A stretch of DNA of 64,000 nt from Escherichia coli 042 (GCF_000027125.1 NC_017626.1), one strand, 5' to 3'. Positions 5,558 through 35,104 are shown, numbered from the stretch's first letter. Notes: generated from the letters alone by a model not told the origin. Translations and numbers: made by a program.

Positions 5558-5656
5558 GCCGGATGCGGCGCAAACGCCTTATCCGGCCTACAAAATCATG
5601 CTAATTCAATATATTGCAGAAATATCGTAGGCCTGATAAGCGTAGCGCATCAGGCA
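5558..5656. repeat. Two REP elements in opposite orientation (BIME-like) between convergent yfeS and cysM
   Basis: gccggatgcggcgcaaacgccttatccggcctaca and gtaggcctgataagcgtagcgcatcaggc match the REP family also seen at 6630, 26870-27352, 52003 and 56676. Confidence 0.7.
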
Positions 5657-6629: not shown

Positions 6630-6668
6630 GCCTGATGCGACGCTTACGCGTCTTATCAGGCTTACAGG
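6630..6668. repeat. REP element in the cysA-cysM intergenic region
   Basis: gcctgatgcgacgcttacgcgtcttatcaggcttaca fits the REP palindrome family. Confidence 0.6.
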
Positions 6669-14991: not shown

Positions 14992-15109
14992 ATGAAACGG
15001 ACAATGCTCTGTCTTTCTCTGCTGGCTGTCAGCTGTAGCGTCAGCGCCGCAAAATACCCTGTTCTGACAGAAAGTAGTTGATCAAGTGTATGCGGCGTTA
15101 AAGCAGTAA
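14992..15109 (+). pseudogene. yfeW: Probable remnant of yfeW (PBP4B / DD-carboxypeptidase) after an internal deletion
   Basis: ATG at 14992 with RBS 5 bp after murP encodes a signal-peptide-like MKRTMLCLSLLAVSCSVSAAKYPVLTESS then a stop at 15079-15081; a different frame ends ...VYAALKQ* at 15107-15109. K-12 order as I recall it is murP-yfeW-yfeX with yfeW about 430 codons. Confidence 0.45.
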
Positions 15110-19645: not shown

Positions 19646-19650
19646 CTCCC

Positions 19651-20703
19651 TCACCCCCATTCCCGCATCCGCTGATGCAGCGTCAACGACGGCTTCTCGG
19701 CAAACAGCTGCTGGTAATCCGTGGCAAATTGCCCCAGATGCCAGAATCCCCACTGCATGGCGGCGTCTTTTACCGTTGTGCTTTGCGACCAAGGGCTTAT
19801 CAGTTCGCGGCGTACGGCGTTCAGGCGAATGCGTTTCAGCCACGCATTTGGGCCAATGCCTAAAATAGCGTGAAACGCGTTTTGTAGCGTGCGGCGGCTG
19901 ACATGCAGTTGATTACACAAGTCCAGCACCGTCACCGGTTCGGACATGTTTTCCAGCACATATTCACGGGCGCGGGAAAGCAACCGACGGTAACTCTGAT
20001 GACTGATGCTTTCCGCCGTCACCATTGGCTGCGCTTCTTCCAGCATCGCCCCCATCGCCATGAGCAAATTATCCCCCAGCACTTTACGCACAGCAGGCTG
20101 ATGAAGATTTTCCGGGTTCTCGCAAAATGTCGCCAGCGCCTGTTGGACAAAGCCCCACAGCGCGGCTTTATGCTGTTCTTTCACTTCCAGCGCCGACTGG
20201 CTACGCAGCATATGTAATACCCGATCCGGATTATGCAAAAAGTTAGCCTGACGGGTGATGACATCTTCAGAAAGCACTACGCCCAGGATCGTGTAATCGT
20301 CCGGCGTACTTAATTCAAACTCGGTTCCACCGGGGCGCGTCGCTATTTCTGCGCTTCCCAGACATTGCGAACCGATAAATCCCTGCTCACCGCGCGTCGC
20401 CGGAATGCCAAACCAGAACGAGTTCGGCCAGACCAGGCACGACTGACGCAGCGCCAGACCGGTGTATTCACGAAAAACCTGAATATCATCGAGTAGAATT
20501 TCCGTAAATTCACCATGAAACTTGCCCGGATGCAGCTGATCGTAAATCTGCTGCCAGGCGGTAATCGTTAAAGCATGTTCATAGACATCCGTTGTCTGTC
20601 GTTGATGAACATTATCCACTTCGACCTTCGGCGTGAGCTTCAGGTTTTCGGGTAAGGGTTCATGATAAAGATGGTGCAAATTGGCTGTACGGGTCTTTTT
20701 CAT
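19651..20703 (-). CDS. eutR: AraC-family transcriptional activator of the eut operon
   Basis: 350-aa ORF with a C-terminal AraC-type HTH; sits at the distal end of the eut cluster. Confidence 0.93.
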
Positions 20704-20748
20704 GATGTTAATGCCGGGTGTTGTAGGACACCCGGCACCTCCGACAGG

Positions 20749-21249
20749 TTAATGGGGCTTGAGACGATAACGACTACTGCGTTTACGTAACGTCCCGGCA
20801 GAAAAGAGCTGTTCGAGCGCATTTCTGGCTTTTTCGAGCGGCCAGCCAAAGTGGGCTGCCACTTCTCCTGCCGTCATTCCCTGACGTACTGATGTTAACA
20901 GCGCCAACAACTCGTCAGCAGATTCCGCGACGATAACTGGCGCGTCGGGTTCCTTTACGGGTTGCTTCGGCTGGCGGTTAAAGCCAGTAACCAGCCACTG
21001 GATGTCATCGTCTGGCCGACCGATCTCCTTGCGGCTGATGACACGCCCGGTACGCATCGCGGCAGCACAACCTGCGTCCAGCGCCGCACGACACGCCGCC
21101 AGATCGCCTTCCACCACCAGCGTTAGGCGACCAGGGTCAAGCACTTCGTGACTGAGCAGACGAACGTTAGCTGCTTTGAGCATGGCATCAGCTGCATCTA
21201 TCGCGGCGACCATGCCGTCCACTTCCAGCAATCCCAGTGCATTGATCAT
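20749..21249 (-). CDS. eutK: Ethanolamine microcompartment shell protein EutK
   Basis: BMC-domain N-terminus (MINALGLLEVDGMVAAIDAADAMLKAANV) with a C-terminal extension; start chosen at the MINALG ATG. Confidence 0.9.
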   Translation of the reverse strand: MINALGLLEVDGMVAAIDAADAMLKAANVRLLSHEVLDPGRLTLVVEGDLAACRAALDAGCAAAMRTGRVISRKEIGRPDDDIQWLVTGFNRQPKQPVKEPDAPVIVAESADELLALLTSVRQGMTAGEVAAHFGWPLEKARNALEQLFSAGTLRKRSSRYRLKPH

Positions 21250-21261
21250 CGGCAACCTCCG

Positions 21262-21921
21262 TTACGCACGCTGGATAGGATTACGCGCGATTTCCAGCAC
21301 TGCATCGGTAAAGGCGTTACAGGCTGCTTTACACGCTGCCTGGCTACCGGTTAAAAATGCTGCCGAGTAGTTGGTTTCAGACGGTGGCGGGACATAGGTC
21401 ACCAGCTGTACGTCGGCAGATTTCAGGGCTGCATCAATGCCATAGGTCGCTTCCAGCGGCGGTGCCACCAGATACGCCATCGGATCGCCAAGCGTGATCC
21501 CGGCGGTTGATGAGAGATAAGAACCGGTACGCGAAACTACATGTGCCAGGAAGGCTGTATTTTCTGCGTCATTAGCCCACTGGAAAGCAGCGCCATTTTC
21601 AATATGCGCAACCATCGCATCCAGACCAGCACGCACTTCCGCCGGGTTTGGCCCACCGAGCATAATCAGCACTTCACCGGCAGTCGGTGACGGTCCGTGT
21701 GCAGCGCCCGCATACAGCGAGCGGCCATACACCACTTCGACCATCGCCTGCTTGGTCGCTTCGTCAGCCGCAATGTAGGTGACGTCATCGGAATCAGCAG
21801 AAATCAGCCCGAGGCTACGAATATGCGGCGGCAATTTCAGTTCACGCGCAAATTCGGCGTTAACGGAGGCAATCACCCGCATGGCGGTGACCGACGGTCG
21901 AATCAAATCTAAAGCTGGCAT
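21262..21921 (-). CDS. eutL: Ethanolamine microcompartment shell protein EutL (tandem BMC domains)
   Basis: 219-aa ORF; position between eutC and eutK. Confidence 0.93.
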
Positions 21922-21930
21922 GATGCCTCC

Positions 21931-22818
21931 TTATCGGGTCATGTTGATGCCGGATGCTTTCTGCTCCAGCATACGTTTCGCCAAATCCACAATGACGGCT
22001 GCGGCTTCAACCGGCGGCGTGCCGCCCTGGTGAATGTTAGAAATACAGGTGCGATCGGCCTCAACGGTGGTCGCCATACGCGGCGAGTAAACGGCGTAGC
22101 AGGAGAGGCTTTCTGACTGCCCTAATCCCGGGCGTTCCCCCACCAGCAGGATCACTACTTTCGCGCCGAGGATCTCACCGATCTGATCTTCAATCTTCAC
22201 GCGACCATAACGAACAAAGAATGGCGTACCGACTTTCAGCCCGGCCTGTTTCAGGCCCGCCATCAGCGGCGGCAGGATCTCTTCGTAGTTCACGGTGATC
22301 GCATCAGTTGACAGGCCATCAGAAATAACGACCTGCACGTCCGGATTAGCAACACACTGTGCTTTCAGCGCTTCAACAGCTTCTGCACACAGGCGGCGGC
22401 CCATATCCGGACGAGTCAGGTAGAGATTTTTGTCGCTAATTTCAGAGCGGACTTCCAGCAAGCCCTGCGCTTTCACCCACTCTTCTGGCACTTCTTTCAG
22501 TACGGTATCTTTCGAACGAGAGTGATCGGCCAGGAAACGCAGCAACGCCTGGGTACGCGGACGCGGACCGGCACGACCGGTACAAACGCGGGCCACGGTG
22601 CTGCGACGCAGTTCTGTTAATACGTCTGCGCGATGCGGGTTTTCAACGCCAATCCACGCTTTTGCTTCCGCAGAGCCTAAATCCAGCGCGCAGCTTTCCG
22701 AGGTCACCGGTGCCGCACAGGTGGTGGTGGCGCACTTTGCTTCTGACGGCGCGGGGGCCGCTTGTCCCATTGACGCCATCACGCTGCGTACAATTTCTTC
22801 AATCTGTTTTTGATCCAT
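21931..22818 (-). CDS. eutC: Ethanolamine ammonia-lyase small (light) subunit
   Basis: 295-aa ORF immediately downstream of eutB. Confidence 0.95.
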
Positions 22819-22838
22819 GATGTGTTATCTCCGCGTCA

Positions 22839-24200
22839 TCAGAAGAACAGTGACGGATCGCCCGCCCGTTTGGTCAGGCGACCGTTTGCCATAATGCCCA
22901 TGCTTTCCAGCCAGCGTTCAAACTCCGGTGACGGGCGCAGGTTGAGTAACTGACGCACAGTGGCGGTATCGTGGAAGGCGGTGGTCTGGTAGTTGAGCAT
23001 GATGTCATCACCCAGCGGCATCCCCATGATGTAGTTACAGCCTGCGGTGGCGAGCAGGATCATCAGGTTTTCGTTGAGGTTCTGGTCAGCGTCAGCGTGG
23101 TTGGTGTAGCAGCAGTCACAGCCCATAGAGATGCCGCTCAGCTTACCCATAAAGTGATCTTCTAAGCCCGCACGGATAATCTGGCGGTCGTTGTAGAGAT
23201 ACTCCGGCCCAATAAAGCCGACCACGGTGTTGACGATAAACGGATCGTAATGACGCGCCAGCCCATAGTTACGCGCTTCCATCGTCACCTGGTCAGCGCC
23301 GAAGTTCGCGCCAGCGGACAGCGCAGAACCCTGCCCGGTTTCGAAGTAGAGGCAGTTTTCCCCGGCGATACGGTTGAACTCCGCGCCCACTGCGCGTGCT
23401 TCATCGAGCATCGCCAGCTCCACGCCAAATTCTTTCAGCCCTTTTTCGCTGCCGCAGATACTCTGGAAAATCAGCCCGCCTGGTGCGCCACGACGGATCG
23501 CTTCAATCTGGGTGGTGACGTGCGCCAGCACGCAGCCCTGGGTCGGAATGTTGAATTTGTCGATCACGCCGCAAATGGTGTCCAACACGCGGCTTAAGTT
23601 TTCCACGTCGTCAGTCACCGGGTTAACGCCGATCACCGCATCGCCCACCCCGAAGGAAAGCCCTTCGTAGATTTGCGCGGCGATACTTTGCACGTCGTCA
23701 CGGGTGTCGTTTGGCTGCAAGCGGGCGCTGAAGGTGCCCGGAATACCGATGGTGGTATTGGCCTTTTTGATCACCGGCATTTTCTTCGCGCCGTAGATCA
23801 GGTCCGCGTTGGAGCAAATCTTCGCTACCGCCGCGACCACTTCCGAGGTCAGCCCTTTGCGGGTAAAGGCAATGTCGTCCACGCTGGTTTCATCGCTCAG
23901 CACATACTCACGCAGTTCGCTGATGCTCCAGTTTTTAATCTGGTTGTAGGCCGTTTCGTTAACGTCGTCCTGAATCAGCCGCGTCACGCAGTCATCTTCA
24001 TAGGCAATCACCGGATTATTGCGGATGTCCGCTACGGTCATTTCCGACAACACCTGCTTTGCCGCCACGCGCTCTTGTGAGCTTGCCGCTGCAACGCCCG
24101 CCAGCACATCCCCCGAACGCAGTTCGTTGGCTTTAGCCAGCACCTCTTTTACATCCTTAAACTGATATACATTGCCGAACAATGTGGTCTTTAGTTTCAT
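22839..24200 (-). CDS. eutB: Ethanolamine ammonia-lyase large (heavy) subunit
   Basis: 453-aa ORF MKLKTTLFGNVYQFKDVKEVLAKANELRSGD...; only 11 bp from the eutA stop. Confidence 0.96.
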   Translation of the reverse strand: MKLKTTLFGNVYQFKDVKEVLAKANELRSGDVLAGVAAASSQERVAAKQVLSEMTVADIRNNPVIAYEDDCVTRLIQDDVNETAYNQIKNWSISELREYVLSDETSVDDIAFTRKGLTSEVVAAVAKICSNADLIYGAKKMPVIKKANTTIGIPGTFSARLQPNDTRDDVQSIAAQIYEGLSFGVGDAVIGVNPVTDDVENLSRVLDTICGVIDKFNIPTQGCVLAHVTTQIEAIRRGAPGGLIFQSICGSEKGLKEFGVELAMLDEARAVGAEFNRIAGENCLYFETGQGSALSAGANFGADQVTMEARNYGLARHYDPFIVNTVVGFIGPEYLYNDRQIIRAGLEDHFMGKLSGISMGCDCCYTNHADADQNLNENLMILLATAGCNYIMGMPLGDDIMLNYQTTAFHDTATVRQLLNLRPSPEFERWLESMGIMANGRLTKRAGDPSLFF

Positions 24201-24211
24201 AAGTCGTTCCC

Positions 24212-25615
24212 TCAGGAAGGAAATGCGAGTGATTTCACCGTCACCGGCACAACCGATCCGCCAAAAAGAGGCGTACCAATGTCGATATAGTCCCCCGCGC
24301 GGACAATCACTTCGTCAATGACTGCCAACGGGAGTTGCTGTAGCTGTGGGCGCAACAACATGCCCAGAGCTTTACCAAAGTCCTGCCCGGCCACCACCAG
24401 CAGGGGATGCGGATTCGGAAAACGCGCGACGAAATCGACCAGCGCGTTGATGACCGTCAGTACCGCGGCGTAACGCACAGGCAGCGAGGCGGGAAGCGCC
24501 AGCACGTACGCGTCAGTTTTGGGGCAAAGATCCAGCTGAATCAGCGCCTGTTGCCAGGCACTCACCAGATCCGTTTCATCAATTGGGATCGCCACCGGCA
24601 AATTGCGCAGCGGCAGTTGTACGCCCTCCAGCCAGATTGTGCTGCCAGAGAGCGAAAGGGTATGTGCACCCGCGCCAATCACCGTGGCACGTACGGTTTG
24701 CGCTGGAAACTGCACGTTCATCTCACGCAGGCGCGGATGGTCATGCAGCGCCGTTGCCAGAAGCGGGCCGATATCGGCAAAACAGAACGGATCGGCGGGC
24801 TGGTGGCGATAACATTCGCCCACGCCGCCAGAAAGCGTAATGATTTCGGGCGTAACACCTGCGGGCAGCAAACCGGTTTGCATCAATGCCTGCGCGAGCG
24901 GCGAGAGCGTTCCGTCGATCACTTCGACAATCAGCTCTGCCATCCGGCGGGTAACCTGCACCAGCTGCGCGCCGGTCAGCGAACGGGCGTCAGTGCCAGC
25001 ACCGAAGCACTCATCCACAATCATCTGCCCCGGTTTATGAGCGTAAACCACGCGCCCCTGGCTGTCGGTTTCCAGCAGGCGACCGCCGACGTTGAGGCAG
25101 GCGGTGCCGCTGATTTTTCCGGCATCGAACAGGGCGTAGTTCGCGGTGCCACCGCCGATATCGATATTCAGTACCCGACACAACCGTTGTTCAGAAAGGG
25201 TTTGCGCCCCGGCACCGTGACCGGCGATCACGGATTCGAGATGCGGCCCGGCGCTGGCGACGACAAAATCGCCCAGCGATTGGGAGAGCGTCATCACCGC
25301 CGGGCGAGCATTGCGGGTTTTCGCGCTTTCACCGGTGATGATGATGGCACCAGAATCAACGCTTTCCGGCGCAATGCCCGCAGCCTGGTATTGCTCGAGG
25401 ATTAAGGTTTTCAGTTCCGCTTCTTTTAAACCACCCTGTTTATCGACAGGGGTAAAGAACACCGGGCTTTGCCAGCTAATTTCGCGTTTGATGAATTCGT
25501 AGCGCGGCACCTGCGACACCGCCGCACGGTTAACCAGCTCCAGGTGGGAGAAGATCACCTGGGTGGTGGTGGTGCCGATATCGATACCGACGCTCAGTAG
25601 CTGGCGAGTGTTCAC
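24212..25615 (-). CDS. eutA: Ethanolamine ammonia-lyase reactivating factor
   Basis: 467-aa ORF with ASKHA/actin-like ATPase features; directly upstream of eutB. Confidence 0.95.
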   Translation of the reverse strand: MNTRQLLSVGIDIGTTTTQVIFSHLELVNRAAVSQVPRYEFIKREISWQSPVFFTPVDKQGGLKEAELKTLILEQYQAAGIAPESVDSGAIIITGESAKTRNARPAVMTLSQSLGDFVVASAGPHLESVIAGHGAGAQTLSEQRLCRVLNIDIGGGTANYALFDAGKISGTACLNVGGRLLETDSQGRVVYAHKPGQMIVDECFGAGTDARSLTGAQLVQVTRRMAELIVEVIDGTLSPLAQALMQTGLLPAGVTPEIITLSGGVGECYRHQPADPFCFADIGPLLATALHDHPRLREMNVQFPAQTVRATVIGAGAHTLSLSGSTIWLEGVQLPLRNLPVAIPIDETDLVSAWQQALIQLDLCPKTDAYVLALPASLPVRYAAVLTVINALVDFVARFPNPHPLLVVAGQDFGKALGMLLRPQLQQLPLAVIDEVIVRAGDYIDIGTPLFGGSVVPVTVKSLAFPS

Positions 25616-26838
25616 GATTGTGCCTCCGCTTCGGTTTTAGCCGCGGTCGCGTCTTCTTTTGGCACCAGCATCATCGCCACGCCAATCGCCGTTACGCCGC
25701 CGATCAATTTGCCGACAATCATCGGGAAAATCATGGCGTTCATGTTGGCAGCGGCGAAGCCTAAGTGGTCGCCCAGGGCGAAAGCAGCGGAAACGGCGAA
25801 GGCGCAGTTGATGACTTTGCCGCGGGTATCCATCTGCTTCATCATGCCGAACATCGGGATGTTGTTAGCAAGCGTTGCCACCATGCCAGCTGCCGCGATG
25901 TTGTTCATATTCAGCACTTTACCGACGCTCATCAGCGGTTTTTCAAACCAGCGGGTCAGCAGCAGCACCATCGGGTACGCCCCTAACAGAACGCAGGAGA
26001 TAGAACCGATAACTTCAATGGCGCGCATCACTTCACCGGGTTTGTCGCCAGGGGCCATAAAGATAGGATCCAGACCGGGGATCAGTTCCCAGCCAAGGAG
26101 GAATTTCACTACCGCGGCAGCAAGACCGAGGGTGATCAATGCAACGAGGAATTTGGCGAAGATCTGGAAGCCGTTGATCATTTTTTCCGGGATGAATTTC
26201 AGCCCCAGCGCCACCAGCACCGCAACGATAAGTACCGGGATCATGTTCATCAGGATCAGCGCAAAGGTGAATTCCACCGGCTGACCGTTGATCTGCACAC
26301 CGGAGTACATAGCAACCAGACCACCAGCAATACAGCCAATCGGAATGGTCACAATGCCCGCCAGCACGCCGAGCGCCAGATAACGACGGTCAGAAGGTTC
26401 GATAATGCCGAGCGCCACCGGAATGGAAAACACAATCGTTGGCCCCATCATCGACCCGAGAATTAACCCAGAGTATAGCCACGCTGCTACGTCGCCGCCC
26501 GCCAGCTCTTTGGCGAGGAAGAACCCGCCCATATCGCACGCCAGCAGTGTTCCGGCGAACATCGATGGGTTTGCGCCGAGCATTTCGTAAACCGGGATAA
26601 TCACCGGTCCGAGTACGTGGGCCAGAACAGGTGCCAGCGCGGTCATACCAACCATCGCCAGGCCCAGTGCGCCCATCGCCATAAAGCCTTCTTCAAACTG
26701 CCCGCCGGATCCTTCGATACTTTTACCGAACTTACCGAGGAAACGAGCAGAACCGCCGAACTGCGACAGGATCCTGTCTACGGCAGCTATCAGCATAAAG
26801 AACATCATGATGTACATGATGATTTCGTTAATTCCCAT
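25612..26838 (-). CDS. eutH: Ethanolamine permease/facilitator
   Basis: 408-aa polytopic membrane ORF; 4-bp overlap with the eutA start. Confidence 0.95.
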   Translation of the reverse strand: MGINEIIMYIMMFFMLIAAVDRILSQFGGSARFLGKFGKSIEGSGGQFEEGFMAMGALGLAMVGMTALAPVLAHVLGPVIIPVYEMLGANPSMFAGTLLACDMGGFFLAKELAGGDVAAWLYSGLILGSMMGPTIVFSIPVALGIIEPSDRRYLALGVLAGIVTIPIGCIAGGLVAMYSGVQINGQPVEFTFALILMNMIPVLIVAVLVALGLKFIPEKMINGFQIFAKFLVALITLGLAAAVVKFLLGWELIPGLDPIFMAPGDKPGEVMRAIEVIGSISCVLLGAYPMVLLLTRWFEKPLMSVGKVLNMNNIAAAGMVATLANNIPMFGMMKQMDTRGKVINCAFAVSAAFALGDHLGFAAANMNAMIFPMIVGKLIGGVTAIGVAMMLVPKEDATAAKTEAEAQS

Positions 26839-26868
26839 CGCCTTTACTCCCTGTTAGTTGTTATTTAT

Positions 26869-27352
<484 letters not shown>

Positions 27353-27353
27353 T

Positions 27354-28541
27354 TTATTGTGCCGCTGCGTACAGGCCGACAATCTGCTCCAGGCTGGCGG
27401 TACGCGGGTTGCTGCGCAGACAAATATCTTCCAGCGCGGCCTGCGCCCATGCGCCGTAATGTCCGGTGGTTGCGCCCACGTCTGCCAGCCGCTTGTTGAT
27501 CCCGACTTCCGCAATCAGCTCACTTACCGCGTTAATAGCGTCACGATCGTCGGATTTTTTAGTTCGCAGCGCCCGACCAATCTGACTAAAGCGTTCACGA
27601 CAAACCATCCGGTTAAATTCCATCACCGTTGGCAGCAACATGGCGTTCGCCAGACCGTGCGGAATATGCAGCGCCGCCCCCGTTTGATGCGCCATCGCGT
27701 GGCATATCCCAAGCCCCGCACTGGAAAACGCCATTCCCGCCATGCATGAAGCCAGCAACATACTCTCGCGCGCGGCAAGGTCGTGACCGTAGCCCACCGC
27801 TTTCGGCAGTGATTTACCAATCATCGCGATTGCGCCAATCGCCAGGCTGTCGGTAAACGGTGTAGCGTTCAGCGCGCTGTACGCTTCAATGGCATGGGTT
27901 AACGCATCAATGCCAGTCATCGCCGTGACATGCGACGGCACGCCTTCGGTCAGCGCGGCGTCGAGGATCGCCACATCCGGCATCAACGAGGCATGTGCTA
28001 ACACCTGCTTGCGCCCGCTCACCGCGTCGATAATCACCGTTACGTTGGTGGTTTCAGAACCGGTTCCGGCAGTAGTTGGAATGGCAATCAGCGGCAGGCG
28101 CGGTTGCAGAACGCTGGTTTCTGACATTTCTGCCAGCGTGCTATCCGGGTTCGTCACCAGTAGTGCCACCGCTTTCGCCGCATCCAGCACCGAGCCGCCG
28201 CCAAACGCAATCACCCCATCGCACCCCGATTCACGCAACTGCGCCACGGCTGCACACACGTCGGTGATGCACGGTTCGCCCACCGGACATGACCAGAGCG
28301 TCATGGCGATACCTTTAACGGCCAGGCTACGCGTCAGCCCGGCGGTCATCCCTGCCTGATGCAAAAAGCTGTCTGCCATCACGAACAGATGTTTCAGCCC
28401 ACGCGTTTGCGCTTGCTGTCCGCAACTGCTCACCGCGCCCGGACCGCAAAGCGTCACCGGTGGAACGCTAAATGTTTTTACCCGTTGCAGATTCAGGGTA
28501 TCGAACGCCTGAAAGAGCGCGGTCTGCAATTCATTTTGCAT
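27354..28541 (-). CDS. eutG: Iron-containing alcohol dehydrogenase of the eut pathway
   Basis: 395-aa ORF with Fe-ADH family features. Confidence 0.95.
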   Translation of the reverse strand: MQNELQTALFQAFDTLNLQRVKTFSVPPVTLCGPGAVSSCGQQAQTRGLKHLFVMADSFLHQAGMTAGLTRSLAVKGIAMTLWSCPVGEPCITDVCAAVAQLRESGCDGVIAFGGGSVLDAAKAVALLVTNPDSTLAEMSETSVLQPRLPLIAIPTTAGTGSETTNVTVIIDAVSGRKQVLAHASLMPDVAILDAALTEGVPSHVTAMTGIDALTHAIEAYSALNATPFTDSLAIGAIAMIGKSLPKAVGYGHDLAARESMLLASCMAGMAFSSAGLGICHAMAHQTGAALHIPHGLANAMLLPTVMEFNRMVCRERFSQIGRALRTKKSDDRDAINAVSELIAEVGINKRLADVGATTGHYGAWAQAALEDICLRSNPRTASLEQIVGLYAAAQ

Positions 28542-29367
28542 AGATCCCCTCCGCTTTCTCTCGCCCGCTACTGGCGATCGCCAGCGGGGTCATAAACAAA
28601 CTGTGCTGCGGTAGATGCACCTGTAACGCCGGGAATTGTTTGCAAAACAGTTCCGCTACGCCCGGTTGCATACAGGAGCCGCCCGCCAGCCATAAATCAG
28701 TAATGCCCTGCCCTTCAATATGCCGGGCGACAATGTCCGCCATTTTTTCGTACACCGGTTTCACCGCAGGCCAAATCTCTTCACCGTGACCGCGCTTGTA
28801 CTGCTCCGCCTCTTCCAGCGAAATACGGCGATTTCCGGCGAGAGTCAGAGAGATGTGATGTCCGCCAGTGGCTTCATCCGCCGAGTACGTCACCTTGCCC
28901 TTTTTCACGATGGCAATGCCGGTGGTGCCGCCGCCGATATCCACTACGCCTGCGTTGTCCAGTTGCAGCAGATCCGCGACTGCGGTTGGCTCATCCAGCA
29001 CATGGCTCACTTCCAGTCCAGCAGACTCCAGCACGTTGATGGAAATACGCGGGTCCGTACCTGGAGGAAATGAGGTCGCCGCATGGCTAAAACGGCGACC
29101 GAATTGCTGCTCAAGAGTGTCGAGATGGCGACGAACAATGGTGACCGCACCGAAGAAATCCCAGACGATGCCGTCGCGGACCACATCGGCCCAGTCGAGA
29201 CATACCGCCACCGGCTGACCGTCGCAGTCGACAACCATCGACACCACATCGCAGGTGCCCAGATCCACCCCCAGCCACAGCGGAGATTCCGTTGCGGCAG
29301 GTGTCTGGTTACACAGCGTTGCCGCCGTTTGCAGACGCGGGGTGAGCCATTGTTCGTCGTGCGCCAT
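28531..29367 (-). CDS. eutJ: Ethanolamine utilisation chaperone-like protein (Hsp70/actin fold)
   Basis: 278-aa ORF; overlaps the eutG start by 11 bp. Confidence 0.93.
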   Translation of the reverse strand: MAHDEQWLTPRLQTAATLCNQTPAATESPLWLGVDLGTCDVVSMVVDCDGQPVAVCLDWADVVRDGIVWDFFGAVTIVRRHLDTLEQQFGRRFSHAATSFPPGTDPRISINVLESAGLEVSHVLDEPTAVADLLQLDNAGVVDIGGGTTGIAIVKKGKVTYSADEATGGHHISLTLAGNRRISLEEAEQYKRGHGEEIWPAVKPVYEKMADIVARHIEGQGITDLWLAGGSCMQPGVAELFCKQFPALQVHLPQHSLFMTPLAIASSGREKAEGIYAK

Positions 29368-29377
29368 CGGTTACTCC

Positions 29378-30781
29378 TTAAACAATGCGAAACGCATCAA
29401 CTAATACACAGCGACGCAGACGGACAAACGTACGCGCGCTGGTTACCCCTTCACCGGTTGGCGTGGTGATGGTCATGGTGGTCCAGCCTTCCCCGCCCAG
29501 CCCCAGCCCGGCAATGCACGGTCCGTTCTTAACGAAAATGCTGGTATCAATGGCGTTCGCCATCTGGTTCATGTTCTCGATGTTGCGCGAGTGCATTGCC
29601 GCCGTGTGATGGCAACCGCCTTCCAGTTTCACCGCCAGCGCAATGGCATCCGCCACGTTGGCGACGCGCACGACGGGCAGCACCGGCATCATCAGTTCGG
29701 TCACGGCAAACGGATGTTCTGCAGTGGTTTCCACAAACAGCAAACGCGTTTCTTGCGGCACGTTCAGGCCGATTGCCGCCGCGATTTTCGCCGCATCGCG
29801 ACCTACCCAGTCACGGCTGACGGTGCCTTTTCCGCGCTCGTCGATATTTTTCAGCAACACCGGTTGCAGCTGCTGCGCCTGTTCTGCGGTCAGTTTCACC
29901 GCGTGCTGGCCTTCCATCAGACGCATCAGTTCATCGGCTACGCTATCAACAACAATCAGTACCTTTTCGTCGGCACAAATGATGTTGTTATCGAAAGAAG
30001 CGCCTTTGACGATGGACTGAGCGGCACGGGCGAGGTCGGCGGTTTCATCCACCACTACCGGCGGGTTGCCAGCGCCTGCGGCAATCAGACGTTTATTGGT
30101 GTGTTTACGCGCCGCTTCTACTACCGCTTCGCCGCCCGTCACCACCAAAAGGCCGATGCCCGGAAACTTGAATAAGCGTTGCGCGGTTTCGATATCCGGA
30201 TTTGCCACAGTAACCAGTAAGTTTTCCGGCCCGCCTGCGGCAACAATCGCCTGGTTGAGCAGCGTGATCGCCCGCTGGGAGACTTTTTTCGCCGCCGGAT
30301 GCGGGGCAAAAATGACGCTGTTGCCCGCGGCAATCAGGCTGATGGCGTTGTTAATTACGGTTGCCGCCGGGTTAGTGGAAGGCGTCACCGAAGCCACCAC
30401 GCCCCAGGGCGCGTTTTCAATTAAAGTCAGGCCGTTGTCGCCGGTCAGCACCTGTGGTGAGAGGCACTCAACGCCTGGTGTGCCGCACGCCTGAGCGACG
30501 TTTTTGGCAAATTTATCTTCGACGCGGCCCATGCCGGTTTCACTGACGGCAAGTTCCGCTAAATCTCTGGCGTGTTTTTCGCCTGCCTCACGAATGGCAG
30601 CAATGGCTAACTGGCGCATTGCCACGCTTTTTAACCCTTGCTGGGCAATTTTGGCTGCCGCAACGGCGTCATCCAGGGACGCGAAAACGCCCATCTCATG
30701 AACGGCGGCGGGCGGCGTATCACTGCTTTGCATTTTCAGCAGTACCGCTTTCACCACCTGTTCAATATCCTGTTGATTCAT
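29378..30781 (-). CDS. eutE: CoA-acylating acetaldehyde dehydrogenase
   Basis: 467-aa aldehyde-dehydrogenase-family ORF. Confidence 0.95.
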   Translation of the reverse strand: MNQQDIEQVVKAVLLKMQSSDTPPAAVHEMGVFASLDDAVAAAKIAQQGLKSVAMRQLAIAAIREAGEKHARDLAELAVSETGMGRVEDKFAKNVAQACGTPGVECLSPQVLTGDNGLTLIENAPWGVVASVTPSTNPAATVINNAISLIAAGNSVIFAPHPAAKKVSQRAITLLNQAIVAAGGPENLLVTVANPDIETAQRLFKFPGIGLLVVTGGEAVVEAARKHTNKRLIAAGAGNPPVVVDETADLARAAQSIVKGASFDNNIICADEKVLIVVDSVADELMRLMEGQHAVKLTAEQAQQLQPVLLKNIDERGKGTVSRDWVGRDAAKIAAAIGLNVPQETRLLFVETTAEHPFAVTELMMPVLPVVRVANVADAIALAVKLEGGCHHTAAMHSRNIENMNQMANAIDTSIFVKNGPCIAGLGLGGEGWTTMTITTPTGEGVTSARTFVRLRRCVLVDAFRIV

Positions 30782-30792
30782 GATGTTCTGCC

Positions 30793-31080
30793 TTATTTGT
30801 GGAAAATTACCTGACCGCCAGACACCACCTCATCGACGATGCCAATCACGCACAGATCGACCGGTGACGTTTCGCTTTTATGCGCCTGGCGGGCGGAACT
30901 GCCACTCACCAGCAACACCCACTCCCCGGTTCCCGCGCCAATATTGTCGATTGCGACGGCGCATTGCCCGTCAGGATTACCTTGTGGATCAATCATTTCC
31001 ACCATCAGCAATTTGTCATGCGCCAGTCCGTGATGGCGTACGGTACAAACAATTTGTCCAGTGACGACTGCCAGTTTCAT
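30793..31080 (-). CDS. eutN: Microcompartment vertex (pentamer) protein EutN
   Basis: 95-aa ORF MKLAVVTGQIVCTVRHHGL...; EutN/CcmL family. Confidence 0.93.
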   Translation of the reverse strand: MKLAVVTGQIVCTVRHHGLAHDKLLMVEMIDPQGNPDGQCAVAIDNIGAGTGEWVLLVSGSSARQAHKSETSPVDLCVIGIVDEVVSGGQVIFHK

Positions 31081-31186
31081 ACCCGCCTCCGTGGCGTATT
31101 TCAGGTAAAAGCTCCCCCTACCCTCCGCGGAAGGTAAACTGAAAAATGAGAGAGCGTGACGCCCGAATCGACGTCACACAGGGTGA

Positions 31187-31480
31187 TTACAGGTTGCTGC
31201 TATCGCCTTTCAGGCCGATCGGGAAGACTTCTTCCAGGTCGCCGTGCGGACGCGGGATAACGTGTACAGATACCAGCTCGCCGATACGCTGTGCCGCTGC
31301 AGCACCTGCGTCGGTCGCGGCTTTACAGGCTGCAACATCACCACGAACCATGGCAGTACACAGGCCGCCGCCAATCTGCTTAACACCAACCAGCTTGACG
31401 CGCGCAGCTTTCACCATCGCGTCAGAAGCCTCAATCAGTGCAACCAGGCCCCGGGTTTCGATCATTCCTAATGCTTCCAT
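31187..31480 (-). CDS. eutM: Major microcompartment shell protein EutM (BMC domain)
   Basis: Track ORF carries a 14-codon extension; the BMC sequence [28 protein letters not shown]... is 97 aa with RBS. Confidence 0.93.
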
Positions 31481-31518
31481 TGTGCTTTCCTCTTTATCAG
31501 GGTCCAGAACGGGACCGT

Positions 31519-32535
31519 TCATTCAACCAGTGTTTGTAAACTGCTTTCGCGGTTCACTTCTGTCTGACGCGGCACAGCTGCCACCAGCGCCAGTTCGATA
31601 ATTTCCTGCACGCTACAACCACGAGAGAGATCGTGCATCGGCGCGGCAAGTCCTTGTATCAATGGCCCGACGGCACGATATCCGCCGAGTCGTTGTGCGA
31701 TTTTGTAGCCAATATTTCCGGCTTCCAGCGACGGAAAAACCATCACATTGGCCTTGCCTTGTAGCGGGCTGGCAGGCGCTTTTTGCGCCGCCACTTCCGG
31801 CACGAAGGCGGCGTCAAACTGCAACTCGCCATCGACTACCAACTGCGGCGCGCGCTCACGGACGATTTCTGTCGCCTGCTGGACATTGGCAACGCAGGGG
31901 TGACGGGCGCTGCCGTTACTGGAAAACGACAACATCGCCACGCGCGGCTCTTCTCCGGTGATGGCGCGCCAGGTTTCGGCGCTGGCAAGCGCGATATCCG
32001 CCAACTGCGCCGCCGTCGGCTGTGGCACTACGCTGCAATCGGCAAAGCCCAATGCGGGGCCACTGTACTGTGGCAGCATCAGGAAAATGGAGGAGAGCGT
32101 TTTACAGCCTGGCTGTAAGCCAATAATGCGTAATCCGGCACGCAGCACATTCGCCGTGGAAGAGAGATTGCCCGCGATACAGACATCCGCTGTCCCGGCG
32201 CTGACCATTGCGGCAGCGAACATCAGCGGATCGGTGAGTTTTTCCAGCGCATCCGGCGGCGTTTTTTCGCCCGCACGGGCCAGCCAGCGATGAGCAAATT
32301 CTTCCCGCATTGCGAGGTTGCCATGCGGATCTATCACCTGTAGCCCGTCCATCGCTACGCCATGACTGAGCGCAAACTGACGAAGTTCAAACGGATTGGC
32401 GACCAGAATGGGCGTTGCCAGACCTTGTTGATGTAAATATTGCGCAGCTTTCAGCACACGTTGGTCTAACGCATCCGGAAATACCACTCTGGCGGGCGCT
32501 CGCAACGCCAGTTCACGACAACGTTCAATAATCAT
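31519..32535 (-). CDS. eutD: Phosphotransacetylase of the eut pathway
   Basis: 338-aa PTA-family ORF. Confidence 0.95.
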
Positions 32536-33329
32536 TGCGTTTCTCCCAGTCGTTGTTGGATCTGCTTCACCGTTAGCGGTTGTTTCGCTACGCTCAGGAT
32601 CATCATCACGTAAACCGTGCTGGAAAGGCGATTTAGCGCCTGCAAGATGTCCGGGCGTAATACTTCAAAACTGCGGGTGATAAAGACCTGCGCCGCTACG
32701 GTTTCACGCACTTTGGTGCGTAGCAGATTGAGCAACGCCGCATCGCGTCCGTGGCTGGCTTCCGGCACCAGATGATCGTGACCAAGATAGCGCAGCGGCT
32801 GGTGAGAAAGCCGATGCAGATCTTCGTCAGAAAGCCCGACAATCGCCTGGCAGGCCAGCGGTTCCCCCAGCGCATCAGCGCGCATAATGTTGCCAAGACG
32901 CGAGCGGATGTCCGCAAGCCATGGCTGCCACGGTTCTGCCAGTTCAATTTGCAGCCACACTGCCAGCGCAATGGTGCTGTCGAGAACAGCGCGAAAACCC
33001 AGGCGCGGATCGCTTTTGGCGACCATTTTTTCCGCCGACAGGTGAGTCAGCGTATCCGGCTTTTTTGCTACCGGCTGGCGGCACAGTTCGCAGCACGCCT
33101 GCGGATGTTCATCGCTACTGGTCAGCCCATGAACGGGCTGCGGCTGCTGCTGTTCATCGTCAACAAACAGGCGGCCCTGCTCGTCAATAAACTTGATGCG
33201 CAGATGGCGGCTTTCCAGCAACTCCCGGGCAGAGGGCGTCAGGCGACTGTCCGCAGGGAGATGGATCTCTGCGCCTTCGCTGAGCGTATGGTTCGCTCTT
33301 AGCCATGCTTCGGTGATGAAATCTTTCAT
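32532..33329 (-). CDS. eutT: EutT-type corrinoid (cobalamin) adenosyltransferase
   Basis: 265-aa ORF with a cysteine-rich HPQACCELC motif; 4-bp overlaps with both neighbours. Confidence 0.92.
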
Positions 33330-34027
33330 AGGGATTGCCAGTTAGCCGGCCAGGCGACATACAGGAATTTCACGCTGGATGTCGTACCAAATTCGATGCT
33401 GGAGCCTTTCGGGATAAACATCACGTCGCCTGCTTTGGCGATCATGGTTTCGCCTTCGTGGCGAACATGCAGCTCCCCTTCCAGCACCATGTCGATTTCG
33501 TCGTAGTTCAGGGTCCACGGGAAGAATGCGTTCTCCCACTGCATAAAACCGGCGGCCATGCTGCTGCCGTCGTCTCCGGTCACAAGATCAGTCAAGCCCA
33601 CGCAATGCGGCTCTGCGCCGTCGAAACGACCAAACTTGACGCTGCTGCCATCAATAACTTTGATGCCGCCTTTGCCGGTCACCGATTTGAAACTCGGCTG
33701 CATTGCACCCTGCTCCAGCGACAGTTTTTCCTTCATCACTTTTTCCATCAGCTGCGCGACCAGGCTTTCGGTAAACTGGCCTTCCGGTAGCTGGGCGATG
33801 ATGGTTTCGCGGATGCGCTGACTTTCGGTTTTATCGGCTGGCACGCTGGCGGGAACGGACGTCGTTACCGCAGTCGATTCATCACATTCGGTGATGGTAA
33901 AACCCAGTAGATCTGCCACTTCACGGGCTTCCGGGGTAATAATGCTGGCGCGCAGAACCACGGACATTGCCTGTTCGCCGCGCGCGTGTGCTTCACGAAT
34001 ATCATTCGCTGTGATGAGTTTTTTCAC
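33326..34027 (-). CDS. eutQ: Cupin-fold ethanolamine utilisation protein EutQ
   Basis: 233-aa ORF MKKLITANDIREAHARGEQAMSV.... Confidence 0.92.
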   Translation of the reverse strand: MKKLITANDIREAHARGEQAMSVVLRASIITPEAREVADLLGFTITECDESTAVTTSVPASVPADKTESQRIRETIIAQLPEGQFTESLVAQLMEKVMKEKLSLEQGAMQPSFKSVTGKGGIKVIDGSSVKFGRFDGAEPHCVGLTDLVTGDDGSSMAAGFMQWENAFFPWTLNYDEIDMVLEGELHVRHEGETMIAKAGDVMFIPKGSSIEFGTTSSVKFLYVAWPANWQSL

Positions 34028-34481
34028 CTGCTTCCTCCTGTTTGGTGAGAGATGCCAGATAATCCACCAGTTGCTGCACGCTTTGCGGGTCGTGGCTGTT
34101 TAGCTCGAAAATCGGCTCTTCGAAGCCCGTCTCAAGCAATAACTTTCGCGTTGCGGCGACGTCAGCATCTGGCATGTCCGTTTTACTGATGACGGCGATT
34201 TGCCGTTTGCTGACGCCAATATCCAGCAACCCGGCAGGCAATCGGCTTTCCGGGTCATTCGCGCCGTGGACATAGATCAGCATGTCCACATCCTGTAGCG
34301 TGGTAATTAAGGCGTGATACCAGCGGGGGTGGCTAAAATATTCACCCGGCGTATCAATATCACCCTTATCATTAAATTCTACGGCCTGCGTTTTTCTGGC
34401 GAGGGTATAATCTCCCTGCAACGCATTAAATAACGTTGTTTTTCCTGCCCCGACGGTACCCACAAACGCAATTCGTTTCAT
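34002..34481 (-). CDS. eutP: P-loop NTPase-like protein EutP
   Basis: 159-aa ORF with Walker A GTVGAGKTT; overlaps the eutQ start by 26 bp. Confidence 0.92.
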   Translation of the reverse strand: MKRIAFVGTVGAGKTTLFNALQGDYTLARKTQAVEFNDKGDIDTPGEYFSHPRWYHALITTLQDVDMLIYVHGANDPESRLPAGLLDIGVSKRQIAVISKTDMPDADVAATRKLLLETGFEEPIFELNSHDPQSVQQLVDYLASLTKQEEAGEKTHHSE

Positions 34482-34493
34482 GAATGCCTCGTA

Positions 34494-34829
34494 TTAACTT
34501 TTGGTCATTTCACAAAGCGTATAATTTAATAAACGCCCTAAACCGCTGACGGTTTGTGATAACGCTTCTTCTACTGCGCCCACCGAGCCATAAATCACCA
34601 GCGCGCCGCTAAAACGGTCGAGAAAACCGATATGCACATCGGCGGCTTTTAGTGCTAAATCACCGGCGATCATCGCCGTTTCGCCGGGAGTTAGCGTCAT
34701 AATGCCGATTGCGCCCGCATCAGGAACGCCGATTTTCTTCGCCAGTTCCTCGCCGGGATGCGCGATGAGATGCGCCAGTGTGACCTGTTTACCGGGCACA
34801 AATTCCTGAATGATGCGTTCTTTATCCAT
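34494..34829 (-). CDS. eutS: Microcompartment shell protein EutS (permuted BMC domain)
   Basis: Track ORF is extended; product from [25 protein letters not shown] is 111 aa; first gene of the operon. Confidence 0.9.
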
Positions 34830-35060
34830 GAGTCGCCGCCTGTGAAAAACTTTCGTGTATCGTGACAATTTTTCGTCAGAGTAAATAACAAAATTCGGCA
34901 AGCGCGTTTAAAAGGTGAGGTAGATCACTAAGAATGGAGAGATATTTACTGTTATGAATAAACTTTCATATGCGAGGCATGAATATAAATAAAATAATAT
35001 CGAGATATTTTATATACTGCTTTTTTTATTATTCGCAAACTCAGTAATAAGCTTTGCTAA
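34830..35060 (-). promoter_or_regulatory. AT-rich eut operon promoter/operator region upstream of eutS
   Basis: About 230 bp of strongly AT-rich sequence directly upstream of the first eut gene; the main eut promoter is expected here. No individual site assigned. Confidence 0.4.
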
Positions 35061-35076
35061 TATATTTCAGGAAAAC

Positions 35077-35104
35077 CGCTTACCCTGAATATTCAGGGTA
35101 AGCG
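35077..35104 (-). terminator. Rho-independent terminator downstream of maeB
   Basis: Palindrome cgcttaccctgaatattcagggtaagcg followed on the minus strand by a T-rich run, about 20 bp after the maeB stop. Confidence 0.55.

Follow-up and report, generated by a model that had tools for sequence, protein, structure and literature searches.

Ethanolamine use affects the fitness of Escherichia coli in the gut and urinary tract. Its use is encoded by operons such as those of the enterobacterial EUT1 type, whose mechanism is established family knowledge and has been summarized in PMC5821096 and PMC7617246. Intact operons support ethanolamine use and the formation of bacterial microcompartments (BMCs), and the cryptic prophage CPZ-55 blocks both (PMC11334477; PMC7617246). 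E. coli Nissle 1917, which has an intact operon, forms microcompartments (PMC7617246), and strain BW25113 regains ethanolamine as a nitrogen source when the prophage is scarlessly removed (PMC11334477). The site between eutA and eutB is a prophage insertion hot spot (PMC6652756); CPZ-55 was found there in 8% of 638 strains, flanked by an 8-bp duplication (PMC6379469). Here, we analyzed the ethanolamine utilization (eut) operon within a 64-kb stretch of the chromosome of E. coli 042 (NC_017626.1), referred to below as the window. We conclude with high confidence that it is a canonical enterobacterial EUT1 operon, free of prophage and located between maeB and hemF, with two strain-level features: a small deletion in EutT and a long repeat array between eutG and eutH.

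The eut operon of the window is complete

Open reading frame listing, together with a megablast search of 5,426 complete E. coli genomes, all but one of which (5,425) matched the locus, placed the operon at positions 19651 to 34829 of the window on the minus strand. The limits given in a first-pass annotation of the window were exact: the eutR stop codon finishes at 19651, and the eutS start codon begins at 34829. According to the annotation of the best match (NZ_CM128588.1) and of K-12 MG1655, the genes follow the order eutS-P-Q-T-D-M-N-E-J-G-H-A-B-C-L-K-R, as in K-12. With maeB upstream of the operon and hemF converging on eutR, the locus occupies its normal chromosomal site. From cysK to hyfD, the whole window was found to be collinear with an ordinary E. 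coli chromosome, without gaps except in eutT.

All 17 eut genes had been described as present, full length, and tightly packed. In gene-by-gene blastn comparisons, 17 of 17 aligned end to end with their MG1655 counterparts at 94.7 to 99.3% DNA identity, and global protein alignments gave 97.5 to 100% identity to K-12 across the Eut set. DNA and protein alignments with K-12 and with a near-identical RefSeq genome revealed no internal stop codon or frameshift in any of the 17 genes. In eutE, two 1-nt gaps that compensate each other were considered as a possible lesion and rejected, since they alter a single residue and are common to other strains. Start codons were the same as in K-12, including GTG for eutA and eutQ. 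Product lengths equaled those of K-12 in 16 of 17 cases, so that "full length" applies to all but EutT, which has 265 instead of 267 amino acids (aa). Similarly, tight packing was seen at 14 of 16 gene junctions (-26 to +45 bp) but not between eutM and eutN (106 bp, the same length as in K-12) or between eutG and eutH (515 bp).

In a profile search, all 17 products exceeded the NCBIfam cutoffs (Table 1). Thirteen passed on Eut-specific equivalog models and two, EutS and EutB, on Eut-specific subfamily models, while EutD and EutE passed on generic phosphotransacetylase and aldehyde dehydrogenase models, respectively. The signature enzyme is represented by both EutB and EutC (99.7 to 99.8% identical to K-12), and the core cofactor-recycling enzymes EutE, EutG, and EutD were likewise found, all scoring above cutoff. 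The shell set is complete, comprising the BMC-H proteins EutM, EutK, and permuted EutS, the BMC-T protein EutL, and the BMC-P protein EutN (four equivalogs plus the EutS subfamily model). Over their full lengths, EutS matched PDB 3I96 (E = 1e-68), EutM 3I6P/3MPW, EutN 2HD3/2Z9H, and EutL 3GFH/3I82 (E = 7e-138); residues 108 to 166 of EutK, which form its C-terminal domain, matched 3I71. These profile scores and the matches of the shell proteins to solved E. coli Eut structures bear out the earlier judgment that this is a described system and not a new one. The amphipathic peptides expected at the N termini of EutC and EutE are present: that of EutC is an encapsulation peptide, and that of EutE (MNQQDIEQVVKAVLLKM) resembles one. 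Residues 1 to 20 of EutC have been used to target green fluorescent protein to Eut BMCs in W3110 (PMC11334477).

The AraC-type regulator EutR is encoded by the last gene, as in the enterobacterial type without EutVW or a riboswitch. When the locus was searched with Rfam for a cobalamin (B12) riboswitch, EutX-like RNAs, and similar families, the only matches were to naRNA4/repetitive extragenic palindromic (REP) elements; no riboswitch was expected in an enterobacterial operon regulated by EutR. The integrity of the genes, their family membership, and their synteny were all read directly from these alignments and searches.

The eutA-eutB junction is an unoccupied CPZ-55 site

The first-pass annotation had set the close spacing of eutA and eutB, 11 bp apart, against K-12, where CPZ-55 lies between them. 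The 11-bp gap was confirmed at positions 24201 to 24211, between the start of eutB (24200) and the end of eutA (24212). In MG1655, eutA does not adjoin eutB: the same junction measures 6,801 bp and includes CPZ-55, annotated as a cryptic prophage, whose genes intZ to yffS lie on the opposite strand. The 8-mer TCAGGAAG flanks CPZ-55 on both sides in K-12 and occurs as a single copy in the window, in agreement with the duplication described in PMC6379469. By its 11-bp gap and its single TCAGGAAG, the locus falls outside the CPZ-55-interrupted, K-12-type class.

A 300-bp probe spanning the junction was continuous in 4,961 of the 5,426 complete genomes (91%) and split in about 460 (∼8.5%), including the K-12 derivatives NCM3722 and J53. 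The label "non-K-12-like" is thus correct insofar as the window differs from MG1655, but the uninterrupted state is the species norm and confers no distinction. It is the prophage interruption of K-12 that represents a peculiarity of a laboratory lineage. The W3110 stock of Jallet et al. was eut+, whereas BW25113 has the prophage (PMC11334477); the presence of CPZ-55 is therefore true of MG1655 and BW25113 and not of every K-12 derivative. The operon of the window is an already known, textbook system in its commonest genomic state.

EutT lacks two residues in an invariant helix

The difference in EutT length was traced to an in-frame 6-bp deletion near position 32706 (∼32700 to 32712), which removes Glu-Thr. 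Where K-12 and the nearest complete genomes have the tandem hexamer GAAACCGAAACC, the window has GAAACC; the loss is a slippage deletion. An 80-bp probe over the deletion site matched 5,408 of the 5,426 complete genomes, all of them with the extra 6 bp. The searched RefSeq set leaves out E. coli 042 (NC_017626.1), which accounts for the absence of a complete genome with the deletion. The exact 265-aa protein has been deposited for E. coli O44:H18 strain 042 (CBG35491.1) and for many other isolates, and it was indexed in 130 blocks of an assembly collection, corresponding to about 130 public assemblies. One of these independent assemblies, GCA_013354125.1 (locus L005), shared 99.995% identity with the window across 20.8 kb and contained both the deletion and the five-unit repeat array described below.

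To place the deletion within the protein, EutT was aligned with 46 diverse homologues (27 to 62% identity). None of the 46 showed a gap at the deletion position. Residues N201, R204, R208, and E211 were invariant, and K-12 and all 46 homologues keep the spacing of the motif N201-x2-R204-x3-R208-x2-E211. The deletion falls between R208 and E211, and the window protein departs from this fixed spacing by an R-to-E distance that is two residues shorter. In the AlphaFold2 model of K-12 EutT (predicted local distance difference test score of 93), residues 191 to 218 form one continuous helix; in the model of the deletion allele, this helix is broken at residues 207 to 209, an observation that is no more than suggestive. 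The C-terminal ∼170 residues of EutT have the PduO-type adenosyltransferase fold, a helical bundle, and in a profile search the R-x3-R-x2-E motif aligned with the active-site helix of Lactobacillus reuteri PduO (...R-T-I-T-R-R-A-E...). A structure of the R132K active-site variant of L. reuteri PduO exists; a search for a solved structure of EutT itself showed that there is none. Read from the sequence, the metal motif H-x11-C-C-x2-C is intact, with H67, C79, C80, and C83 all present; this motif is reportedly the one characterized by Moore et al. in 2014. Taken together, the alignment and the structure models suggest that the EutT of the window is probably impaired.

This raises the question of whether the operon merely looks intact and is functionally compromised in this lineage, having lost in-compartment re-adenosylation of cobalamin in an early step toward decay. 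Use of ethanolamine would in that case be poor, or it would require high B12 and BtuR. Such a reading draws on the position of the deletion between two invariant residues of a helix without length variation among the homologues, on the predicted break of that helix, and on the absence of the allele from the 5,408 complete genomes; it has to contend with 16 other genes that are intact and nearly identical to functional alleles, and with the persistence of the allele in many independent assemblies (the 130 blocks), so that it is not strongly counterselected. Moreover, Salmonella eutT mutants are said to use ethanolamine as long as CobA is present and B12 is ample, as Sheppard et al. and Buan et al. 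reportedly found in 2004. BtuR is the E. coli counterpart of CobA and can supply adenosylcobalamin. Given this supply, the operon as a whole is still likely to function, and we consider a compromised operon unlikely. Instead, the lineage-specific loss of Glu-Thr from an invariant active-site helix would probably weaken EutT, an accessory enzyme, with the housekeeping enzyme BtuR/CobA adenosylating cobalamin in its place.

A five-unit repeat array separates eutG and eutH

The spacer between eutG and eutH is 515 bp long (26839 to 27353), versus 216 bp in K-12. A mobile element was considered as the cause and rejected, since the spacer consists entirely of REP units. Tandem Repeats Finder reported a period of 100, 4.8 copies, and 97% matches, and each unit was resolved into a forward and an inverted REP, with a linker of 12 nt between them and one of 17 nt after the inverted REP; a search pattern of fixed spacing under-counts the REPs. 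The array begins 2 nt past the stop codon of eutG and stops about 30 nt short of the ATG of eutH. As extragenic tandem units of paired, oppositely oriented palindromic units, it constitutes a bacterial interspersed mosaic element (BIME). The spacer RNA was predicted to fold with -284.6 kcal/mol (z = -10.9 versus shuffled sequences), and three of the units matched the Rfam family naRNA4 (RF02564) at 71.6 to 77.5 bits, compared to a gathering score of 59.5.

To see how this spacer varies, we surveyed its forms in a systematic sample of 59 chromosomes. Two units, the K-12 type, were the most frequent form (23/59), followed by one unit (19/59); three units were present in 4, four units in 1, and five units in 5 chromosomes, and the spacer was divergent in the remaining 7. 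The five-unit array was common to twelve complete genomes. Copy-number polymorphism of this kind is known, and with five units the array of the window stands at the top of the range (1 to 5 units). Divergent spacers were seen in O157:H7 strains and a few others, in which 52 to 67% of a 1-kb probe was covered and the spans were 582 to 655 bp. Such values point to REPs of another composition, or to a small rearrangement, in these spacers.

According to a recent proposal, REP arrays act as tunable regulators of operon polarity. A search for literature tying REPs to eutG/eutH returned nothing; the naRNA4 family goes back to REP325, an array of like design with six repeats (PMC4550694), and REP325 was shown to be a partly Rho-dependent attenuator and a stabilizer of the upstream mRNA (2026 preprint, bioRxiv 10.64898/2026.03.23.713779). 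By analogy, the array may bias expression toward eutS-eutG over eutH-eutR: the five units would probably stabilize the upstream eutS-eutG message and partly attenuate read-through into eutHABCLKR.

A more drastic version of this effect, in which strong termination at the array would divide the operon into eutS-G and an eutH-R segment with poor expression, appears highly improbable. Its ten REP hairpins with their predicted fold of -284.6 kcal/mol, the first of them only 2 nt past the eutG stop codon, and the partly Rho-dependent termination at the similar REP325 array would be compatible with such a block. Yet K-12 has a shorter array of the same kind and its prophage-free operon works, the five-unit form is found in about 8% of the sampled genomes, and no T-run terminator follows the array. 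In addition, autoinduction requires eutR, which lies downstream of the array, so that a strong block would be self-defeating. Attenuation that is partial, as proposed by analogy with REP325, remains our preferred reading of the array.

Finally, although both features are located in tandem repeats, where copies are easily miscounted, the chance that either the EutT deletion or the repeat count of five is an assembly or sequencing artifact is negligible, since the independent assembly GCA_013354125.1 has both of them, the exact 265-aa protein was deposited for strain 042 and many other isolates, and the array recurs in twelve complete genomes; for the eutT deletion, the artifact was rejected on the independent assemblies that carry it.

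Other features of the operon and the window

The coordinates of all features are compiled in Table 1. The AT-rich region upstream of eutS was assigned as the putative promoter region from its position and from the legend to Fig. 1 of PMC7617246. No sigma-70 consensus match was found upstream of eutS, as expected for an activator-dependent promoter. The maeB terminator insulates eut from the upstream gene. Within the operon, the hairpin in the eutM-eutN spacer starts 8 nt past the eutM stop codon and may stabilize the message beyond the major shell gene or attenuate it there. At the distal end, hemF and eutR converge with their stop codons 5 bp apart (19646 to 19650), and the scan for terminator-like hairpins detected none between them.

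Table 1. Features of the eut locus in the E. coli 042 window (bit scores are followed by the model cutoff)
Feature	Position	Strand	Description	Length (aa)	Profile match	Residues identical to K-12
eutS	34494..34829	-	Bent-hexamer BMC shell protein	111	NF012012, 247 bits vs 123	All (identical)
eutP	34002..34481	-	Acetate kinase/GTPase-like	159	NF012011 equivalog, 350 bits vs 258	156/160
eutQ	33326..34027	-	Cupin-type acetate kinase; GTG start	233	NF012001, 495.6 bits vs 193	
eutT	32532..33329	-	ATP:cob(I)alamin adenosyltransferase	265	NF011595 equivalog, whole-protein match, 558 bits vs 226	
eutD	31519..32535	-	Phosphotransacetylase	338	NF007233, 409.7 bits vs 310; TIGR00651, 330.9 vs 311.2	
eutM	31187..31480	-	Major BMC-H shell hexamer	97	NF012018, 212.9 bits vs 133	All (identical)
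eutN	30793..31080	-	BMC-P vertex protein	95	NF011992, 210 bits vs 118	All (identical)
eutE	29378..30781	-	CoA-acylating acetaldehyde dehydrogenase	467	NF011927, 736 bits vs 403	463/468
eutJ	28531..29367	-	Chaperone-like, actin/Hsp70 fold	278	NF011660, 399.6 bits vs 182	
eutG	27354..28541	-	Iron-type alcohol dehydrogenase	395	NF011998, 878.6 bits vs 556	
eutH	25612..26838	-	Ethanolamine permease/facilitator	408	NF011665, 873 bits vs 574	
eutA	24212..25615	-	Ethanolamine ammonia-lyase reactivase; GTG start	467	NF007991, 1074 bits vs 799	
eutB	22839..24200	-	Ethanolamine ammonia-lyase large subunit	453	NF011649, 664 bits vs 554	453/454
eutC	21931..22818	-	Ethanolamine ammonia-lyase small subunit	295	NF003971, 339.6 bits vs 230	295/296
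eutL	21262..21921	-	BMC-T pseudohexameric shell trimer	219	NF011934, 402 bits vs 198	
eutK	20749..21249	-	BMC-H shell protein, C-terminal helix-turn-helix-like domain	166	NF012010, 359 bits vs 218	
eutR	19651..20703	-	AraC-family activator	350	NF007522, 790 bits vs 319	348/351
BIME/REP tandem array	26869..27352	-	Five 100-bp units, ten REPs; Tandem Repeats Finder and unit dissection			
Unoccupied CPZ-55 insertion site	24212..24219	+	Single TCAGGAAG; overlaps eutA stop codon			
Stem-loop in eutM-eutN spacer	31154..31179	-	10 pairs, GC-rich, T-rich tail; terminator-like scan			
AT-rich region upstream of eutS	34830..35076	-	Putative main EutR-dependent promoter region, by position			
maeB intrinsic terminator	35077..35104	-	12-pair stem followed by T run			

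Three further observations were made elsewhere in the window. In the cysM-yfeS intergenic region, positions 5592 to 5634 on the plus strand matched the Rfam small RNA family ES036 (CssrF) at 41.1 bits (gathering score, 37.6). The interval between cysA and cysM contains an isolated, Z2-like REP palindromic unit (6630 to 6665, plus strand) that fits the search pattern with 1 mismatch. Between yfeX and murP (∼14992 to 15078), a short pseudogene fragment is annotated at the corresponding place in the near-identical RefSeq genome ("incomplete; partial in the middle of a contig").

Discussion

By analogy with the established family, EutR together with ethanolamine and adenosylcobalamin would activate the promoter upstream of eutS; with eutR in the last position of the operon, induction would be self-reinforcing. 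EutS, EutM, EutN, EutL, and EutK would then assemble a polyhedral shell enclosing EutBC, EutE, EutG, and EutD, thereby confining acetaldehyde and private pools of nicotinamide adenine dinucleotide (NAD) and coenzyme A (CoA). Ethanolamine, admitted by EutH, would be split inside the shell into ammonia and acetaldehyde by EutBC, which would be targeted there by the N-terminal peptide of EutC. EutE would convert acetaldehyde to acetyl-CoA, while EutG would reduce it to ethanol and regenerate NAD+; EutD would recycle CoA through the formation of acetyl-phosphate, and EutP/EutQ would make ATP and acetate. The B12 cofactor would be maintained by EutA, which reactivates EutBC, and by EutT, which re-adenosylates cobalamin.

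Judged from its sequence and from the intact operons studied elsewhere, the operon as a whole is probably functional, as the first-pass annotation had presumed, and we infer that it would be expressed, assemble its compartment, and support growth. Several points weigh against this view. The structured 515-bp spacer could be more polar on eutHABCLKR than the one- or two-unit spacers of the strains studied so far, and the EutT deletion could lower performance at low B12. The effects proposed here for the BIME array and for the deletion were drawn by analogy only. AlphaFold2 is an unreliable judge of the effects of deletions, and the profile match to the PduO helix, with a domain score of about 10 bits, is weak when taken alone.

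It is conceivable, if doubtful, that both features are physiologically meaningful. The number of BIME units (1 to 5) would then tune the ratio of upstream products (shell, EutE, EutG) to downstream products (EutH, A, B, C, L, K, and EutR), while the 042-type lineage would have a crippled EutT. In that case, the BIME unit number would set the induction threshold of the microcompartment, and the 042-type Eut compartment would rely on cytosolic BtuR for adenosylcobalamin. Neither of the two small variants changes the classification of the locus, and they are the only parts of possible specialist interest. The main value of the analysis is that of a sanity check, in which a textbook metabolic organelle locus was correctly recognized.

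The two variants have separate counterparts among known systems. EutT shares the helical-bundle fold and the R-x3-R-x2-E helix of its C terminus with PduO-type ATP:corrinoid adenosyltransferases such as L. reuteri PduO and human MMAB, but in EutT an additional N-terminal domain contains the Cys-rich metal motif. The eutG-eutH array resembles the REP325/naRNA4 array of the yjdM-yjdN operon, which likewise consists of ∼100-bp tandem units with two palindromic units each and lies between codirectional genes of one operon; it differs in its locus and in having five units instead of six. At the level of the whole operon, the eut genes of K-12 MG1655/BW25113 are all orthologous to those of the window (94.7 to 99.3% DNA identity), but the K-12 locus contains 6,790 bp of CPZ-55 right after the eutA stop codon and a duplicated TCAGGAAG, in contrast to the empty site of the window. 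The closest relatives are the EUT1 operons of E. coli and Salmonella enterica (Nissle 1917, prophage-cured BW25113, and eut+ W3110), with the same 17 genes in the same order between maeB and hemF, equal intergenic distances at 14 of 16 junctions, and protein identities to K-12 of 97.5 to 100%. From these, the operon of E. coli 042 is set apart by a eutG-eutH spacer with five BIME units rather than two and by an EutT without Glu-Thr.

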